Origin: Candidatus Micrarchaeota archaeon
Lineage (GTDB): Archaea > Micrarchaeota > Micrarchaeia > Norongarragalinales > JBBILJ01
Direction of reading: 5' to 3'
DNA length: 38,676 nt
NCBI GenBank assembly: GCA_037444945.1
Contig: JBBILJ010000002.1
Location: 1 to 38,676, forward strand
The notes beneath the pieces were generated by a model. The model did no database searches. It had not been told where the DNA came from and saw only the letters and a list, made by a program, of their open reading frames with translations. The translations under genes and the position numbers were made by a program. This document shows positions 2,686-38,676 of this stretch, in pieces (the first letter of the stretch is position 1; the number at the start of each line of letters is the position of its first letter).

Positions 2686-5531
2686 CGCGCGGTTTTCTCC
2701 TCCACGCGACTGACCGCGATGGCTTTTTTGAGGAACGCGCCCGTGTAGCTTTTCTTGTTCTCGGCAATCTGCTCCGGTGTGCCTTGCGCAATAATTTCGC
2801 CGCCACCCTCGCCGCCTTCAGGGCCGAGGTCGATGAGCCAGTCGGCGGTTTTGATGACGTCGAGGTTGTGCTCGATGACGAGTACCGAGTTGCCGCGCTC
2901 GACCAGTCGATGAAGAACACTTAGAAGTTTGGATACGTCGTCGAAGTGTAGGCCCGTGGTGGGCTCGTCAAGAATGTAAAGCGTTTGACCCGTTCCGCGT
3001 TTGCTCAGCTCGGCGGAAAGCTTAATGCGCTGCGCCTCGCCGCCGGAGAGCGTCGTGGCGGGCTGGCCGAGCTTGATGTAGCCCAGGCCTACGTCTCGGA
3101 GGACTTGGAGTTTGTTTGCAATGGACGGGATTTTTTCGAAGAAGAGGAGCGCTTCGTCCACGCTCATCTCGAGCACGTCCGCGATGTTTTTGCCTTTGAA
3201 TTGAATCATGAGGGTTTCCGAGTCGTATCGTTTGCCTTTGCACGTCTCGCACGGCACGTACACGTCGGGGAGGAACTGCATTTCGATGCGAAGCACGCCG
3301 TCGCCTTGGCAGGTTTCGCACCGCCCGCCCTTGACGTTGAAACTGAACGTTCCCGGCGTCAAGCCCGCTGAACGGGCGTCGGGCAGGGACGCGTAGAGAT
3401 CGCGAATCGGCGCGAAGAGGCCGATGTACGTCGCGGGATTGCTGCGCGGCGTGCGACCAATCGGGGCTTGGTCCACGTTCACGACTTTGTCTAAGTTATT
3501 CAAGCCGTTAATGCCGCTGAATTGTCCGGGCGGTTCGCGCGCGCCGTTGTAGTGCCGAGCGAGTTCCTTGTAGAGAATCTCGTTCACGAGCGTGCTCTTG
3601 CCGCTTCCACTCACGCCCGTCACGACCGTCATCACGCTCAAGGGGAAACTCACGTCGATGTTTTTGAGGTTGTTCTCCTTGCATCCTTTAAGCGTGAGGA
3701 AGCGTTTGGCCTCGCGCCGCTGTCGGGGCAGAGGAATGTGTTTGTCTCCTCGCAAGTACGCGCCGGTTAGCGAGTCCTTGCTTTTGAGAATCGTGCCGAG
3801 TGGGCCTTGCGCCACGATTCGCCCGCCCTTCTCTCCCGCGCCAGGCCCCATGTCGATGATCCAGTCGCTCTCGCGCATGGTTTCTTCGTCGTGCTCGACG
3901 ACGAGAAGCGTGTTGCCCAGGTCGCGGAGGCGTTTGAGTGTGCCGATGAGTTTGGCGTTGTCGCGCTGGTGCAGGCCAATGCTTGGCTCGTCGAGCACGT
4001 ACAGCACGCCAGTCAAATTCGAGCCGATTTGCGTGGCGAGGCGGATGCGTTGCGACTCTCCGCCGCTCAAGGTTGCGGCGGCGCGAGAGAGCGTGAGGTA
4101 GTCCAAACCGACGTTGTAGAGGAATTCGAGGCGGGAAACGATTTCTTTGAGGATGAGTTTGGCGATCTGCATGCTCGTGGAGTCGAGTTTGAGTTCGTAG
4201 AAGAAGCGCAGCGCGTCCGTGACGCTCAAATCCGTTAATTCGACGATGTTCCGCTCGCTCAGCGTCACGCACAAGGCTTCGATTTTGAGGCGCTTGCCGT
4301 TGCACGCGGGGCATCGAAACGAGCGCATGTACCGTTCGAGTTCGGCGCGCTTGTCCTCGCTCTCCGTCTCGCGGTACTGCTTTTCGAGCAGTGGAATCAC
4401 GCCCGCCCAGCTGCCTTCGTGGTGCCACTCCGCGTTCGTCGTGCGGGCCTGGTAATCGTACTGGATTCGCTCCGGCGTGCCGTGCAGAATCGTTTTGAGT
4501 TGGGCTTTGGAGAGCTTGCGGACGGGCGTATCCACGTCGAACCCCGCGTGGCGGCCGACGTTGGCGAGGGTTTGGATGCGGAAACTGTTGAAGAAGCCCC
4601 GCCAGGGCGCGATCGCGCCTCCCGCGATGCTTTTGGTGGTGTCGGGAATCACCAACTCCGCGTCGAACTCTTGTTTGACCCCCAAGCCGGTGCATTCGGC
4701 GCACGCGCCGAACGGCGAGTTGAACGAGAAGAGGCGGGGCTGGAGTTCGCCGAGCGAGATTTGGTGCTCCGGGCATGCATTCTGCGTGGAGTAGAGCGTC
4801 TCCTTGCCGTCCACGACGGAGAGGAGTAGGCCGCCGGAGAGTCCCAACACGGCTTTCGTGGAATCGTACAGTCTCGCTTTCTCTTCTGCGCCGGCTTTGA
4901 CGCGGTCCACAATGGCTTCAATCGTGTGCTTTTCCTGCTTTTCTAGTTTCGGTGTTTTCTCGCCCAGGTCCACGCGCTCGCCGTCCACGCGCACCCGGCT
5001 GAAACCTTTCTTCACTAGTTCCTCGAAGAGTTTCTCGTAGGTTCCTTTCTTGGAGCGAATCACGGGGGCGAGGAGCTCCACGTTTTGGTTCTGCAGCGAG
5101 GCGAGTTGTTCGGCAATCTGGTCCGCGGTTTGCGTGGAAATGATTTTGTTGCACACGGGGCAGTGCGGCACGCCCACGCGCGCGTAGAGCAAGCGGAGAT
5201 AATCGTAGATTTCAGTGACGGTGCCGACGGTGGAGCGCGGGTTTTTGCTCACGCTGCGCTGGTCGATGGAAATCGCGGGACTCAGGCCGTCAATGGAGTC
5301 CACGTCCGGCTTGTTCATCAAGCCAAGGAATTGGCGCGCGTAAGTGCTGAGGGACTCCACGTAGCGCCGTTGGCCTTCCGCGTAAATCGTGTCGAACGCG
5401 AGCGTGCTCTTGCCGCTCCCGGAGAGGCCCGTGATGACGACGAGCGCGTCGCGCGGAATCTCGACGTCCACGTTTTTGAGGTTGTGCTCGCGCGCGCCGC
5501 GCACCACGATGCGATCGTTGAGTGTTTTCAT
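2682..5531 (-). CDS. uvrA: Excinuclease ABC subunit A (UvrA)
   Basis: 949 aa. Two ABC ATPase modules ([14 protein letters not shown] and [13 protein letters not shown]), zinc-finger cysteines ([16 protein letters not shown]...CETCKG) and signatures LSGGESQR and LSGGEAQR. Confidence 0.97.
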
Positions 5532-32493: not shown

Positions 32494-32534
32494 TTTTTTG
32501 CGCCCTTGCCCGCGTTCTCCTCCAGCTTTTTTTT
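32494..32534 (+). terminator. Two oligo-T tracts (T6 at 32494-32499, T8 at 32527-32534)
   Basis: Both are located in the 150-nt spacer after the 32472 stop and before the TATA element of the ATPase gene. Confidence 0.4.
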
Positions 32535-32584
32535 CGGGCTCTCCCTCGCCATCTTTGCCGCTTTTTGCGCGCTGGCGCGTTCGC

Positions 32585-32592
32585 TTTTTATA
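32585..32592 (+). promoter_or_regulatory. TATA-box-like TTTTTATA
   Basis: It lies 31 nt upstream of ATG 32623 (MASYLDSL), which supports the internal start rather than the track's 32506 start. Confidence 0.5.
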
Positions 32593-32622
32593 CTCTCCTT
32601 CCCTGCCTTTGAACGATTCGCC

Positions 32623-34356
32623 ATGGCGTCCTACCTCGATTCCCTCGTCAAGAAAGCCAAGGCCTCGAAGAGCACGACGCCTGCCGCGTCACCCGCTGTG
32701 CGCGTGACCGAAGGCGAAAAACCATCGAGGGGTCCCAAGCCCAGCGCGGCCGCGTCACCCGCCGTCGAAGCACCCGCGTCTGCTCTCGCATCAATCGCCA
32801 TCGTTTCTCCCATTCCCCCGGCTCCTTCGGTGGCTGCTCCCGGCGCTCTTGCATTCGGCGCGCCGCAACCTCGCCGGCAAACGCCTCGCGGCGAGGACGA
32901 GGAGGAGCCGGCGAATCGCGTCCTCGTCGAATCGTACGGGTCCGCGAAGATTTACCGCGTGCCCGGCGAGCCGCTTTTCTGGTACGACGTCCCCGCCATT
33001 CATTACCGTGGTGACGAGAAGGCGCTTATCGACGCCCTCGTCGAAATCGCGAGCAAAGTCATCACGTTCGAGGAGCCGTACGCGACGCCGGAGCAGAAGC
33101 GCGACGCGTTCTTCAAGCAACTCCTTGAAATCATCGACGCGACCCCGGAGTTGCGCGTGCCACCGAACGCGCGTGAGTTTTACGCTCGCGCTGTCGTGCA
33201 GGAAATGGTGGGTTTCGGCCAACTCGACCCCCTCCTCGAAGACGACCACCTCGAAGAAATCATGGTGCTCGGACCCAACCGCCCCACCTACGTGTTCCAC
33301 CGCAAGTATGAAATGATGCGAACCAACGTCGTGTTCTACGATGACGTCGATATCCGCGACCTCATCGACCGCATCGCGCGCGACGTGGGTCGCCGCATCG
33401 ACTTCGCCAGCCCGCTGCTCGACGCGCGCTTGCCGGACGGCACGCGTGTGAACGCTACCATCCCGCCCGCCTCCATCGACGGCTCCACGCTTACCATCCG
33501 CAAGTTCCGCACCGACCCCTTCACCGTCGTCGACCTAATGGACCTCGGCACCCTCAACTCGGAAGTCGCTGCGTTCCTCTGGCTCGCCACGGACGGCCTC
33601 GGCGCGCGCCCCGCCAACATTCTCGTCTCCGGCGGCACTGCCTCGGGTAAAACCTCGACGCTCAACATGTTGTGCTCTTTCGTTCCCGCCAACGAGCGCG
33701 TCATTACGGCAGAAGACGTCGCCGAACTCGCTCTCCCGCTGCCGCACTGGATCCGCCTTGAAACCCGCCCACCCGGCATCGAGGGCAGTGGCGAAATCGA
33801 CCTCAACACGCTGGTGAAAAACATTCTCCATATGCGGCCAGACCGCATCATTGTTGGTGAAATCCGAGCCGAGGAAGGCTTTACGCTCTTTAGCGCCATG
33901 AACACGGGGCACATGGGGAGCATGGGGACCGTGCACGCGAACTCGGCGCGTGAAACGCTTATCCGCCTCGCGAATCCCCCCATCAGCGTGCCTGAAATCA
34001 TGTTGGACTCTCTCAACTTCATCGTGATGCAGCAGCGCGTCAACGACCGCCGCAAAGGCCTCATCCGCCGCATCACTGAAATCGCGGAAATCGTCCCAAC
34101 CGAAAGCGGCATTCCCAGCCTGCAAGTCCTCTACAACTGGGACGCCGCCACCGACACCCTCACCGCCACGGGCGTCCCCTCCGCCTACCTACAAACCCTC
34201 TCCCGCTTCACCGGCCTCTCGAAAGAACTCATCCAGCAGGAAATCGACGCTCGCCGCAAAGTCCTCGAAGAAATGCAGCACAACGGCATCCGCAGCATTG
34301 AGAGCGTCACCGAAATCACGCAGAAATACATCCTCCGCCAAAAAGGCCGCATCTAA
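32623..34356 (+). CDS. Type IV filament assembly ATPase (T2SSE family; TadA/EpdL/FlaI-like) with an Ala/Pro-rich N-terminal extension
   Basis: Walker A SGGTASGKTSTLNML, Asp box VITAEDVAELAL, Walker B HMRPDRIIVGEIRAEEG and His box GHMGSMGTVHANS. The first approximately 100 aa are low complexity (TTPAASPAVR...PKPSAAASPAVEAPASA...PPAPSVAAPG). Confidence 0.92.
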   Translation: MASYLDSLVKKAKASKSTTPAASPAVRVTEGEKPSRGPKPSAAASPAVEAPASALASIAIVSPIPPAPSVAAPGALAFGAPQPRRQTPRGEDEEEPANRVLVESYGSAKIYRVPGEPLFWYDVPAIHYRGDEKALIDALVEIASKVITFEEPYATPEQKRDAFFKQLLEIIDATPELRVPPNAREFYARAVVQEMVGFGQLDPLLEDDHLEEIMVLGPNRPTYVFHRKYEMMRTNVVFYDDVDIRDLIDRIARDVGRRIDFASPLLDARLPDGTRVNATIPPASIDGSTLTIRKFRTDPFTVVDLMDLGTLNSEVAAFLWLATDGLGARPANILVSGGTASGKTSTLNMLCSFVPANERVITAEDVAELALPLPHWIRLETRPPGIEGSGEIDLNTLVKNILHMRPDRIIVGEIRAEEGFTLFSAMNTGHMGSMGTVHANSARETLIRLANPPISVPEIMLDSLNFIVMQQRVNDRRKGLIRRITEIAEIVPTESGIPSLQVLYNWDAATDTLTATGVPSAYLQTLSRFTGLSKELIQQEIDARRKVLEEMQHNGIRSIESVTEITQKYILRQKGRI

Positions 34357-34426: not shown

Positions 34427-35533
34427 ATGCCTGCCGAAAAACCGCTCGAAAAAATCAAAGCCGAAATCATGGGCGGCAAGGAGGAGGAAGAGCTCGAAGA
34501 GCGACGCGTCGGCAAAGTCGTCGACCGCCTCAAAAAAGAGCGCACCTCCGAACGCGAAACAAAGGAGCGCTCCGTCGCGCAGATGCGCGAACAACTCGTC
34601 GGCGCCGTGAAACGCGCCCGCCTCAACTTCGGCCGCGTGAGTGGTGACCTCGCCAAACGCGACGACCTCACCTTCATCGGGCGCTTCTACACGACCTTCG
34701 AGCGACCCGTCTCCACCCTCGCTGGCTTGCTCTTCACGCTTCCCGCCGCCGAAAACCTGCAAATCGATCTCGACTCCGCCGACATCCGTCTGAGCGTGGA
34801 GGCGTACCTTGTCGTCGCCGCCTCCTTTGCCGTCCTCCTCGCCGCCATCGTGTTCTTCGGCGTGGGCCTGCTCGGCATCCTCCTCGGCGACGCCAACTTC
34901 GCCTTCGTTGCGCCCGCTTTCGCGATCGCCATCTTCGTTATTGCCATCATTGTCGGCCTACTCTATCCCGGCTTGCGCGCGAACGAGCGCGCCATGAAAA
35001 TCAACCGCGACCTCCCCCTCGCGCTCCGCCAACTCTCCACCCAAATCCGCGCCGGCGTCTCCTTCAACAAGGCGCTGCAAAGCATCGCGAACGCCAAGTA
35101 CGGCGTCCTCTCGCAGGAAATCCAGCGCGTCGTCACCGACATGGAGGCCGGCGAGAGCACGGAAGACGCCCTCGCGCGCCTCGTGCGCCGCACGCGCAGC
35201 AAGGGCCTTAAGCGCGCTCTCGTGCAGCTCGTGCGCGCCCTCCGCACCGGCGGCCGCCTCTCCGACGTCGTGAACGCGATCGCGGAAGACGTCTCGTTCG
35301 AGACACGCATGGCGGTGCGCGACTTCACGGAAATCCTCAACCTCATCTCCGTCATCTACATCGTAGTCGCCGTCGTTGCACCCGTCACGCTCACCATTAT
35401 TTCCGCCATCGTGCAGCTCCCCATGCTCGGCGGCACCGTCCCCAAAATCATTATCTACTTCGCCTTCGCCGCCATTGCAGTCGGCATCGGCAGCATCATC
35501 TTCATCACGCAACGCCTCGAACCCTCCACGTAA
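34427..35533 (+). CDS. Type IV filament platform protein, single T2SSF domain (TadB-like half)
   Basis: A charged N-terminal region, then TM helices, then one T2SSF cytoplasmic domain (DLPLALRQLSTQIRAGVSFNKALQSIANAKYGVLSQEIQRVVTDMEAGESTEDAL...LVRALRTGGRLSDVVNAIAED), then C-terminal TM helices. Confidence 0.8.
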   Translation: MPAEKPLEKIKAEIMGGKEEEELEERRVGKVVDRLKKERTSERETKERSVAQMREQLVGAVKRARLNFGRVSGDLAKRDDLTFIGRFYTTFERPVSTLAGLLFTLPAAENLQIDLDSADIRLSVEAYLVVAASFAVLLAAIVFFGVGLLGILLGDANFAFVAPAFAIAIFVIAIIVGLLYPGLRANERAMKINRDLPLALRQLSTQIRAGVSFNKALQSIANAKYGVLSQEIQRVVTDMEAGESTEDALARLVRRTRSKGLKRALVQLVRALRTGGRLSDVVNAIAEDVSFETRMAVRDFTEILNLISVIYIVVAVVAPVTLTIISAIVQLPMLGGTVPKIIIYFAFAAIAVGIGSIIFITQRLEPST

Positions 35534-35561: not shown

Positions 35562-36509
35562 ATGGCGAACCAAAAAACCCCCTCCAACAAGTTCCAAGCC
35601 TACCTCCTCGAGCGGTACGACGAGCTCGAGCACTTCGTCGCTTCCACTGGCCTTCACGTCCCCCTCCCAGTCTTCATCATTTCCATGTTCTTGATCGGCG
35701 TTCTCGTCGCCTATGTCGTGTTCGCCGTCCTCAACCTCTCTTCCATTCTCTCCCTCGTCGCCTTCATCTCGGTAATGAGCCTCGTGCTCGGCATCCCGCT
35801 GACGCTGCGCAACGCGCGCATCGACGCCATCGAAAGCAACCTCCCCGACGCCCTCAAGCACATGGCGAGCGTGCTGACTTCGGGCGGCACCCTGGTGAGT
35901 GCTCTCGAAGAAACGGCGACCTCCGACTACGGTCCCCTCTCCGCCGACTTGCGGGAAGCCCTCAAGGAGCTCCGCGAGGGCCGCACCTTTGACGAGGTCC
36001 TCCTCGACGCGTCCCGCAACTCCGGCTCGCTGCTCTTCGAGCGCGTCACTTACATCGTGGTGGACGCGCGCCGCGCGGGCGCCGCCCTCGCCGACGTCCT
36101 CGTCGCCATCGCGGAAGACACGCGCGAAGTGTTGCGCATTAAACGCGAGCGCCTCTCCCGCACCACGATGCACACGGCCTTCCTCATCCTTAGTTCGATT
36201 TTCCTTGCTCCGTTCATTTTCGGCTTCACGCTCAGTGTCGTGGACTTTATTGGTACGGGCATGTCGCAAGCCCTGGGCCTCATCGGGCAAGCTGTTGCGC
36301 CCGACCCGAACCGCCTTTCCCTCGACGAAATGAACGGCCTCCTCACGGTCTTCATCGCCGTCGAAGTCGTCCTTACTTCTCTTGCGCTCGGCGTGATTCG
36401 CGAAGGAAAAACCCTTAAATACCTCCTCTATATCCCGTTTATGATTCTCCTCGCCCTCATCATTTTCGAGGGCGGCAAGTGGCTCGCTCACCTCCTCGTC
36501 AACGCGTAA
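35562..36509 (+). CDS. Type IV filament platform protein, single T2SSF domain (TadC-like half)
   Basis: An N-terminal TM pair, then a T2SSF domain (NLPDALKHMASVLTSGGTLVSALEETATSDYGPLSADLREALKELREGRTFDEVL...ARRAGAALADVLVAIAEDTRE), then C-terminal TM helices. Confidence 0.8.
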   Translation: MANQKTPSNKFQAYLLERYDELEHFVASTGLHVPLPVFIISMFLIGVLVAYVVFAVLNLSSILSLVAFISVMSLVLGIPLTLRNARIDAIESNLPDALKHMASVLTSGGTLVSALEETATSDYGPLSADLREALKELREGRTFDEVLLDASRNSGSLLFERVTYIVVDARRAGAALADVLVAIAEDTREVLRIKRERLSRTTMHTAFLILSSIFLAPFIFGFTLSVVDFIGTGMSQALGLIGQAVAPDPNRLSLDEMNGLLTVFIAVEVVLTSLALGVIREGKTLKYLLYIPFMILLALIIFEGGKWLAHLLVNA

Positions 36510-37077: not shown

Positions 37078-37293
37078 GTGACGAGTGTTTTCGGCGACGA
37101 CAAAGGTCAAGGCTCCTTCGAGTACATCCTACTCGTCGGCGGCGCCATCCTCTTCGTTCTCATCGTGATTGCGATTTTGCGCTCTGGCTTCTTCACGCCC
37201 GCCGCCAACCAGACGAATCAGAGTACGACCGCGTACTACAATTACCTTAACGAAACGCGAGGCCAATTCACGGGTAACCGGTCGTTCCCTTGA
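37078..37293 (+). CDS. Pilin C (71 aa), class III signal peptide
   Basis: The GTG start lies 6 nt after GGTGAT (37066-37071). Sequence: MTSVFGDDKG|QGSFEYILLVGGAILFVLIVIAIL. The tail carries NQT, NQS, NET and NRS sequons. Confidence 0.75.
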   Translation: MTSVFGDDKGQGSFEYILLVGGAILFVLIVIAILRSGFFTPAANQTNQSTTAYYNYLNETRGQFTGNRSFP

Positions 37294-37361: not shown

Positions 37362-37535
37362 ATGGATGAACGCGGCCAAGGCTCCTTCGAGTACATTCTT
37401 CTCCTTGCAGGAGTCCTCCTTATCGTCGTCCTTATCATCATCATGCTACATAACATCTCGCTCGCGCAAGCTGGCGCGCAAATCAACAACACGCTTTCCG
37501 TGTGGGCGAAACAAACCAACGCCTCCAACATCTAA
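37362..37535 (+). CDS. Pilin D (57 aa), class III signal peptide
   Basis: Hand translation gives MDERG|QGSFEYILLLAGVLLIVVLIIIMLHNISLAQAGAQINNTLSVWAKQTNASNI, with TAA at 37533-37535. GGAGTGAT lies 5 nt upstream. This ORF is not in the track, which shows only an out-of-frame ORF at 37366. Confidence 0.75.
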   Translation: MDERGQGSFEYILLLAGVLLIVVLIIIMLHNISLAQAGAQINNTLSVWAKQTNASNI

Positions 37536-37586
37536 CAATGAGTGTGACGGCGGAGTTTTGACGCTAAAATCTTCGGTGATATCTAC

Positions 37587-37742
37587 ATGGTTGAACGGGG
37601 TCAGGGAGCGTTGGAGTATTTGTTGTTGATTGGTGGCGCGATTTTGCGTGTCGGGCCGTTCGGCGCCGGCAAGGCTGCCCTCACCAATGGTGGCGGGAAC
37701 TACACGAACGCCGTGAACTTCTCAAACACGACGGTCTACTAA
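37587..37742 (+). CDS. Pilin E (51 aa), a mosaic paralog with its hydrophobic helix shortened by 9 residues; possibly non-functional
   Basis: Hand translation gives MVERG|QGALEYLLLIGGAILRVGPFGAGKAALTNGGGNYTNAVNFSNTTVY, with TAA at 37740-37742. GGTGAT lies 6 nt upstream. Relative to pilin G it lacks 27 nt encoding LVLIVLAIL. Confidence 0.5.
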   Translation: MVERGQGALEYLLLIGGAILRVGPFGAGKAALTNGGGNYTNAVNFSNTTVY

Positions 37743-37743
37743 G
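37689..37743 (+). repeat. 55-nt block identical to 38159-38213 (3' ends of pilins E and G, including the stop)
   Basis: ggtggcgggaactacacgaacgccgtgaacttctcaaacacgacggtctactaag is found at both positions on direct reading. Confidence 0.85.
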
Positions 37744-37913
37744 TGGATCAACGCGCTCAGGTGAGCACAGAGTATTTGCTCTTGCTCAGCCTGGGTCTCG
37801 TTGTCGCCATCGTGGCGGTCGGCCTCGCCCTCCAAATTCAAAACTTGGCGAACGTCGTCATGACGCGCATTTCGAGCGAGCGCAATGAAACCCTCGCCAT
37901 GCTTACTCAGTAA
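37743..37913 (+). CDS. Pilin F (56 aa), class III signal peptide
   Basis: GTG follows immediately after the pilin E stop. Sequence: MDQRA|QVSTEYLLLLSLGLVVAIVAVGLALQIQNLANVVMTRISSERNETLAMLTQ, with TAA at 37911-37913. Not in the track. Confidence 0.7.
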   Translation: MDQRAQVSTEYLLLLSLGLVVAIVAVGLALQIQNLANVVMTRISSERNETLAMLTQ

Positions 37914-38028: not shown

Positions 38029-38069
38029 TATGGATGAACGTGGTCAGGGAGCGTTGGAGTATTTGTTGA
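38029..38069 (+). repeat. 41-nt block identical to 38411-38451 (5' ends of pilins G and H)
   Basis: tatggatgaacgtggtcagggagcgttggagtatttgttg is found at both positions. Confidence 0.85.
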
Positions 38070-38212
38070 TAATCGGCGGAGCAATCTTGCTCGTGCTGAT
38101 TGTGCTCGCGATTTTGCGTGTCGGGCCCTTCGGCGCCGGAAAGGCCGCTCTCATCAGCGGTGGCGGGAACTACACGAACGCCGTGAACTTCTCAAACACG
38201 ACGGTCTACTAA
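38030..38212 (+). CDS. Pilin G (60 aa), class III signal peptide
   Basis: I set the start at the ATG that lies 7 nt after GGTGAT (38017-38022). Sequence: MDERG|QGALEYLLIIGGAILLVLIVLAILRVGPFGAGKAALISGGGNYTNAVNFSNTTVY. Confidence 0.8.
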   Translation: MDERGQGALEYLLIIGGAILLVLIVLAILRVGPFGAGKAALISGGGNYTNAVNFSNTTVY

Positions 38213-38338
38213 GCGCGTTAAAGCGTTTTTGGAGACGCTCCTCATTCGGCTTGGGCGTTCGTTTTTCGCCCTCGCTTTCTTCCTTCTTTTTCCTCTTTCC
38301 TTCTCCGTCTTTTTGGGCGCGAGGACGTTGACCTTTCA

Positions 38339-38346: not shown

Positions 38347-38411
38347 GCTCGCCCCTCCTTTTCCGTTTACCGGGTTCGAACGGTCCTCGCCCGCCCGCTA
38401 GTGATACCCTT

Positions 38412-38594
38412 ATGGATGAACGTGGTCAGGGAGCGTTGGAGTATTTGTTGTTGATTGGCGGCGCGATTTTGCTCGTGCTCATCGTGCTCGTCGTCATTCG
38501 CGCGGGTCCGTTCGGCAACGCGGAGTCGAAACTCGGCGAGGGCGGGGCCGCTTACGTGAACGCGACCAACTACGGCAACATTGCTGGGCACTGA
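38412..38594 (+). CDS. Pilin H (60 aa), class III signal peptide
   Basis: MDERG|QGALEYLLLIGGAILLVLIVLVVIRAGPFGNAESKLGEGGAAYVNATNYGNIAGH. AGTGAT lies 6 nt upstream. Confidence 0.8.
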   Translation: MDERGQGALEYLLLIGGAILLVLIVLVVIRAGPFGNAESKLGEGGAAYVNATNYGNIAGH

Positions 38595-38647
38595 CGCGTC
38601 GCGCTCGCCATTCCTACCTTTTTTAATACAACTTCCTAGGCCGTGAA

Positions 38648-38672
38648 ATCCCAAGCTCTTCAGGCTTGGGAT
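38648..38672. other. Perfect 9-bp hairpin at the window edge (ATCCCAAGC-tcttcag-GCTTGGGAT)
   Basis: The inverted repeat was read directly. It is preceded by the TATA-like TTTTTTAATA at 38619-38628. It may be the 5' end of a transcript or RNA gene that is cut by the window. Confidence 0.3.
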
Positions 38673-38676
38673 GAAA

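Follow-up and report, generated by a model that had tools for sequence, protein, structure and literature searches.

A pilin gene with a shortened hydrophobic helix in the Epd/Tad-like type IV filament locus of a DPANN-type archaeon

Within an array of very small archaeal pilin genes, one member, pilin E, encodes a prepilin whose hydrophobic helix is conspicuously short, and the question is how this gene came to be and what it can still do. The first-pass annotation, made from the letters alone, had described E as an exact mosaic of two of its paralogs, with a 5' part from pilin H, a 3' part from pilin G, and 27 nt of the helix-coding segment lost where the two were joined. We examined whether E is a hybrid of this kind or the resident gene of its position that has undergone a deletion. 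The DNA analyzed, referred to here as the window, is the whole 38,676-nt contig C2 of a MAG of ~1.08 Mb in 121 pieces that is ~90% complete. It was noted that the contig stops 82 nt past pilin H (38595-38676), right after a TATA-like TTTTTTAATA.

The nearest public loci carry the labels Ca. Iainarchaeum or uncultured archaeon, and the host is therefore a small DPANN-type archaeon. The 40 relatives that were searched are all related at the order level, with 0 from the host's own family. Through the list of open reading frames and Pfam profiles, a type IV filament locus was located at the right end of C2, comprising a single-copy T2SSE ATPase gene, two separate T2SSF platform genes, and the eight small genes with class III signal peptides that are called pilins A-H here (Table 1). 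Contig C19, read on its reverse strand (14890-13280), starts 4 nt ahead of the ATG of pilin I and then carries pilin I, pilin J, an A24 prepilin peptidase, and several larger class III-signal proteins in that order. The peptidase (358 aa; PF01478, Peptidase_A24, 3e-9, together with Arc_PepC) lies directly after I and J. It is very likely that the pilin array runs on from C2 into C19 as H, I, J, and the mini-pilins on the two contigs number at least ten. A cognate A24 peptidase, ATPase, and platform are accordingly found in the same genome or locus as pilin E (Pfam).

Similarities to larger genes were also observed outside the array. Pilin C is identical at 108 of 143 nt to the 5' end of a 391-aa class III-signal ORF on contig C31 (~5180-5320), and pilin D matches the 5' end of a 242-aa ORF on contig C48 (~180-250) at 56 of 69 nt. 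It follows that the mini-pilins are related, as copies, to the N-terminal modules of large pilin-like proteins.

Taken as a whole, this is an Epd/Tad-like type IV filament locus, the archaeal T4F "system 1", and so belongs to a known kind. It shares with Epd/Tad systems the single T2SSE, the two T2SSF genes, very small pilins without a globular domain, the Gly/Gln...Glu5-Tyr6 motif (the slash marking the cleavage site), and a dedicated A24 peptidase. To our knowledge, none of these Epd/Tad-like pili has been studied in the host lineage. T4F system 1 is characterized by two platform genes and many pilins and occurs in methanogens, Thermococcales, and DPANN (PMC13705601), and bacterial Tad pili are considered to derive from the archaeal, Epd-like form (PMC13705601; PMC10710030). 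The Tad pilin is a single helix, and its apolar N-terminus acts as both membrane anchor and filament core (PMC10710030). Pilin E departs from the Epd/Tad pilins in its helix: nearly all relatives have 19 apolar residues after Glu5, and E is missing 9 of them.

Table 1. Positions of the filament genes and of the sequence features around pilin E in the window.
Feature	Position	Strand	Remarks and basis
T2SSE ATPase, single copy	32506-34356		Pfam 3.9e-46
T2SSF platform gene 1	34427-35533		separate gene; T2SSF scores at the locus 1.3e-23 and 1.2e-16
T2SSF platform gene 2	35562-36509		separate gene
Pilin C	37078-37293		
Pilin D	37362-37535		
Upstream spacer of E	37527..37586	+	GGTGAT ribosome-binding motif; G-like, not H-like
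Pilin E	37587..37742	+	51-aa prepilin MVERG/QGALEY...; ORF, PF04021, alignments
Retained single CGCGATTTTGC copy (deletion junction)	37637..37647	+	junction 27-mer unique in the genome
E-G identity block	37689..37743 = 38159-38213	+	55 nt: tail codons, stop codon, and 1 nt beyond
Pilin F, F-type	37743..37913	+	GTG start abuts the E stop (TAAGTG, 37740-37745); conserved in relatives
Pilin G	38030..38212	+	full-length, 60 aa; intact duplicate of the E-type gene; repeat sites, alignments
Pilin H	38412..38594	+	full-length paralog; 5' 60 nt identical to the family consensus

In pilin E, the class III signal peptide is intact with its Gln+1, Glu+5, and Tyr+6, the helix is 9 residues short, and the tail resembles that of G. 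The leader and cleavage motif fit the expected short charged leader ending in [KR]-[GA] and followed by Gln+1 and Glu+5. The protein scores 25.4 bits against PF04021 (cutoff 23.7), with only profile positions 2-18 of 27 covered, while the alignments of G and H span positions 2-25 and 2-26. Among the pilins with an MDERG leader (D, G, H, and I; J reads MDEQG), an Asp-to-Val change at residue 2 is unique to E, as is a synonymous CGG at codon 4. The E-specific codon markers include GTT at codon 2, CGG at codon 4, and GGT at codon 16, followed farther downstream by CCG, GGC, GCT-GCC, and ACC-AAT.

The nucleotide alignment of E with G and H contains a single in-frame gap of 27 nt in E, and the helix deletion claimed in the first-pass annotation is real at this level. 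The 9 absent codons encode LVLIVLAIL and are carried by all full-length relatives. The apolar run after Glu5 comprises 10 residues in E, 19 in A-D, G, H, I, and J, and 20 in F. We surveyed this run in 149 motif-matching sequences from this genome and the fetched relatives; the mode was 19 (69/149) and all clear pilins had 16-30. The only exceptions were three larger pilin-like proteins at 12, a value obtained because an internal Gln ends the count. The maximum of the Kyte-Doolittle 19-residue window was 1.37 in E compared to 2.9-3.35 in A-D and F-H. AlphaFold2 returned a 15-residue helix for E at low confidence (pLDDT ~60), whereas pilin G was modeled with a helix over residues 4-31 (28 residues) at a pLDDT of ~90. 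The earlier description of a shortened hydrophobic stretch is supported, in that the helix is abnormally short.

Pilin E lacks the anchor/core helix of ~20 apolar residues that is a feature of PF04021 class III-signal pilins, and its 10 residues would probably be too few for a helix that serves as both membrane anchor and filament core. No short-helix homologue of E was found among 1.8 billion representative proteins (phmmer) or among the surveyed pilin-like sequences. The most likely reading is that E is a decaying or defective copy, and the "dead copy" listed among several outcomes in the first-pass annotation is probably the right one, given the short apolar run and the lack of short-helix homologues in those searches. 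Two features speak against a loss of function: the reading frame of E remains intact and has a ribosome-binding site, and most E-G differences are synonymous. The role of E would probably be covered by the intact G, which has the identical tail.

The position of E is informative about its origin. In the order-level relatives, a fixed gene order was encountered: a short A-like gene, a B-like gene, a GQG-type mini-pilin with a ..NYTN..SN.T tail, and an F-type pilin. The GQG-type and F-type genes are 5-36 nt apart in these relatives, and E occupies the same slot upstream of F. In one relative (G031), the F-type pilin shares 52% identity with pilin F, and the slot pilin aligns with pilin G without gaps at 53% identity. 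Because the match between G and the slot pilin is gapless, the 60-aa form is ancestral, and because of the synteny in relatives, E is the resident gene of the ancestral slot and the 27 nt were deleted in E. By sequence and gene order, then, E reads as the GQG-type mini-pilin gene that resides in a conserved slot and not as a new chimera. Pilins C, D, G, H, I, and J are additional copies specific to this lineage.

The reach of these comparisons is set by how distant the relatives are. The exact sequences of E and G were not found in public assemblies, and homologue searches with E, including phmmer against 1.8 billion representative proteins, recovered only paralogs from its own genome. One further match, a 1082-aa repeat protein, was rejected as spurious. 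Scans of metagenomes and genomes gave distant relatives only, with identities of <=71% at the N-terminus and 48% across the full protein. It was also noted that a homologue of the F-type pilin on the metagenome contig Ga0182022_1286182 (L043:931-1110) is normal through the leader and 14 mature residues, after which it becomes Arg/Pro/Ser-rich and looks frameshifted. In the host, the stop codon of E and the start codon of F abut, and this pair may be translationally coupled.

The flanks and the tail of E tie it to G. The 60 nt upstream of E are identical to those of G at 46 of 60 positions and are not alignable with those of H. The 3' end of E is identical to G over 55 nt, just as the first-pass annotation had stated; if the 14 E-G differences were placed at random, a run this long without any difference would have P = 0.028, and the block is probably the product of a recent conversion between E and G. 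Between the tails of the two genes, 6 codons differ, 4 of them synonymously, and most E-G differences overall are synonymous. A possible homology 3' of the E and G stop codons was dropped from consideration, being weak beyond ~15 nt.

The claim that E is an exact mosaic of H and G did not survive comparison with the constructed chimera. Joining H(1-60) to G(88-183) leaves 10 mismatches to E in 156 nt (3 in the 5' part and 7 in the 3' part), compared to 13-14 mismatches for a plain 27-nt deletion of G. The additional bases explained by H as donor are only four, at nt 40, 42, 45, and 51. In the first 20 codons (60 nt), 3 bases separate E from H and 9 separate it from G, and E and H have an exact run of 35 nt in common (37599-37633 = 38424-38458). 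The 5' part of E is thus closer to H than to G, as had been proposed, but this closeness is not diagnostic: codons 1-20 of H are the consensus of the five paralogs E, G, H, I, and J, and a match to H over G therefore shows only that G has diverged. The four "H" bases in E are themselves the family consensus, common to I and partly to J, with G as the odd one out. Codons 14-15 read TTG ATT in E, H, I, and J and ATA ATC in G alone, where the first-site codons are ATA ATC GGC GGA GCA ATC. At codons 17-19, the states of E are those of the majority, matching two or three of H, I, and J. Across codons 1-20 of these five paralogs, no H-specific derived state was detected in E.

We also assessed whether the stretch of G next to the junction is unusual. 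The 21 positions of codons 14-20 contain 6-9 differences between G and each of the other paralogs. Between E and G, the differences there amount to 5/12 or 7/21 depending on how the stretch is counted, which is not exceptional against the background (binomial P = 0.07-0.11); this background divergence is ~20%, as estimated from the upstream flank and from the mid-tail, where 7 of 42 positions differ. A donor for the unusual G first-site patch was sought elsewhere in the genome, and none was found within 5 mismatches. G and H share a perfect identity block of 40 nt (not 41; 38029-38068 versus 38411-38450), which ends where the divergent G patch starts. The patch as a special mutation cluster was rejected: since it begins at the end of the G-H identity block, it is ordinary divergence of G outside a converted 5' block.

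A 3SEQ-like contiguity statistic for the "H-like" sites gave P ~1e-6 to 1e-7 and was discarded as invalid, as the sites are not exchangeable. Contiguous "H-like" sites are expected without any recombination because H is undiverged in the conserved N-terminal codons, where "G-like" sites are impossible. An unequal crossover between H and G was excluded as well: the upstream flank of E is G-like instead of H-like, and its downstream neighbor is pilin F instead of the G flank. As these flanks are not what a crossover predicts, only a conversion patch of ~60 nt or less could have contributed to E. On these comparisons, E as an H/G hybrid is not supported.

The junction itself lies in a short direct repeat, of which E retains a single copy. 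The first-pass annotation had placed the junction at a 9-nt repeat, GCGATTTTG; a shared word is indeed present there, but its true length is 11 nt, CGCGATTTTGC. Mapping of the coordinates agreed with the placement proposed for this word, at the first site in H (38462-38472), where the second site has diverged, and at the second site in G (38107-38117), where the first site is the degenerate AGCAATCTTGC (38080-38090). The breakpoint thus falls in sequence common to both of the proposed parents. The consensus of E, G, H, I, and J carries CGCGATTTTGC twice, 27 nt apart (codons ..GAIL LVLIVL AIL R..). When the consensus first site is combined with a G-type second site, no in-frame internal repeat is longer than the 11-nt one at offset 27, and a repeat run of >=10 arises in 1.3% of codon shuffles of a consensus-like full-length gene (P = 0.013). 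Both exact repeats were not found together in any extant paralog, the longest offset-27 match being 4 nt in G and 3 nt in H, and we therefore infer the two-repeat parent instead of observing it. Tandem Repeats Finder did not report the 27-nt two-unit structure (19/27 identical), and no weight was placed on it. With its endpoints in a short direct repeat, the deletion bears the sequence mark of a homology-guided event. The "footprint of misaligned recombination or gene conversion" described earlier would accordingly stand as far as a homology-guided event is concerned, but not as evidence that E is a hybrid of H and G.

For the mechanism, we rank first, at about an even chance, a repeat-mediated in-frame deletion in the resident gene by slippage or template switching. 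The parent would have been one ancestral gene of the E/G type with the consensus sequence at both sites. A RecA-independent deletion between the short direct repeats, through replication slippage or template switching, would then have removed the 27 nt between the CGCGATTTTGC copies and kept one copy in E. The "H-like" bases of E would be retained ancestral states, with the first site of G diverging later. E would have kept its leader, cleavage motif, Glu5/Tyr6, and tail, and sequence exchange with G would have continued, as the 55-nt 3' block suggests. Deletions of this RecA-independent kind, between short direct repeats that lie close together, form a prominent and well-studied class (PMC7145654). 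In the slippage or template-switch deletions of the E. coli and B. subtilis model systems, too, the repeats are close (here 27 nt apart), and one of them is lost along with the DNA in between while the other is kept (PMC7145654). The case differs from those deletions in that the parent is reconstructed from a paralog consensus, the repeats are shorter than in most assays, and a second paralog may have been involved. What speaks against slippage is that the cluster of E-G differences adjoins the deletion, which a single misaligned conversion would explain more neatly, and exchange among the paralogs is clear from the perfect identity blocks of E with G and of G with H.

Such a misaligned short-patch conversion is the reading that we rank second and consider unlikely. 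A recipient of the E/G type, already with a diverged, G-type first site, would have taken in a consensus-like tract donated by H or by a paralog like it, and the right end of the tract would have paired with the second-site repeat, so that the bases were gained and the 27 nt lost together. A G-type first site matches the donor word at 8 of 11 positions and the second site at 11 of 11, which would give a reason for the misaligned pairing. This reading also draws on the better fit of the chimera compared to a plain deletion of G, on the location of the extra matching bases directly 5' of the junction, on the long exact E-H run, and on the conversion-type identity blocks elsewhere in the array. 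However, the gain is limited to the four consensus bases that I and partly J also carry, and H is not identifiable as the donor; the local E-G differences do not rise above the background, the contiguity of "H-like" sites needs no recombination, and the flanks of E, which are not H-like, exclude the crossover. The G-type patch would moreover have to predate the split of E and G, which makes the conversion no more parsimonious than slippage. Less probable again, and in our estimate quite improbable, is an artefact of assembly or scaffolding or a minority allele, under which the real E would be full length and the 27 nt would have been lost in a merge or in a rare variant. The MAG is a scaffolded short-read assembly with N runs of 10 and 20-98 nt in many pieces (e.g. 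C1, C3, C6-C8, C10), both C2 and C19 break inside the pilin array, and some scaffolders merge contig ends on overlaps of ~10 nt. On the other side, the 11-nt repeat is far below any de Bruijn k, and every junction k-mer must therefore exist in the reads unless the join was made by a scaffolder. For an overlap join, the two contig ends would both have to lie no more than a few nt from the copies of the repeat, and C2 itself is without N runs. The junction 27-mer is unique, the bin holds no orphan piece with the E markers and the missing 27 nt, and the point differences peculiar to E indicate a distinct locus.

Whatever the mechanism, the short form might be a functional variant, such as a released processed peptide, a filament terminator, a decoy, or an ORF that drives the translation of F, and we judge this to be very improbable. 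It would account for the intact ORF, GGTGAT motif, leader, and cleavage motif, for a deletion that is in frame, for the abutting of the E stop and F start, for the synonymous character of 4 of the 6 differing E-G tail codons, and for the recent 3' homogenization with G that keeps the tail intact. Yet E is a singleton, with no other short-helix pilin among the ~140 surveyed or the 1.8 billion representatives; a repeat spacing of 27 nt makes the loss in frame by itself; the abutting genes are not conserved, the spacers of the relatives being those given above; and the unique Asp-to-Val change falls in the otherwise conserved MDERG leader. The most speculative extension, to which we attach very little credence, is that patch exchange is continual and the 11-nt repeats act as a reversible length switch, turned off by deletion and repaired by conversion, which would vary the displayed tails, or that the short E is functional as a released glycopeptide or filament terminator. 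The repeat-mediated deletion in the resident gene keeps the first rank among these readings.

A resemblance to the pilin gene conversion of Neisseria is one of outcome and not of membership, and nothing here indicates a dedicated variation system. In Neisseria, exchange between pilE and pilS is non-reciprocal and patchwise, and its by-products include length-aberrant or non-functional pilins (L-pilin, S-pilin; PMC13017665). The 55-nt and 40-nt blocks of perfect identity, shared by paralogs that have otherwise diverged, suggest a similar exchange in the archaeal array. In contrast to Neisseria, no silent promoterless cassettes were seen among the copies, all of which have starts and ribosome-binding sites, and the defect in E lies in the conserved N-terminal helix instead of the variable C-terminal part.

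The case of pilin E carries a lesson for tandem pilin families in which the N-terminal codons are conserved or homogenized: closeness to one paralog may reflect a retained consensus instead of recombination. If the deletion is real and E is expressed, the gene would provide a natural test of the minimal helix length for the processing and assembly of a helix-only pilin; if not, the locus is of a known type and the event an ordinary mutation. The case also indicates that, in a DPANN Epd/Tad-like locus, the pilin of the ancestral slot can decay as duplicates specific to the lineage assume its place.
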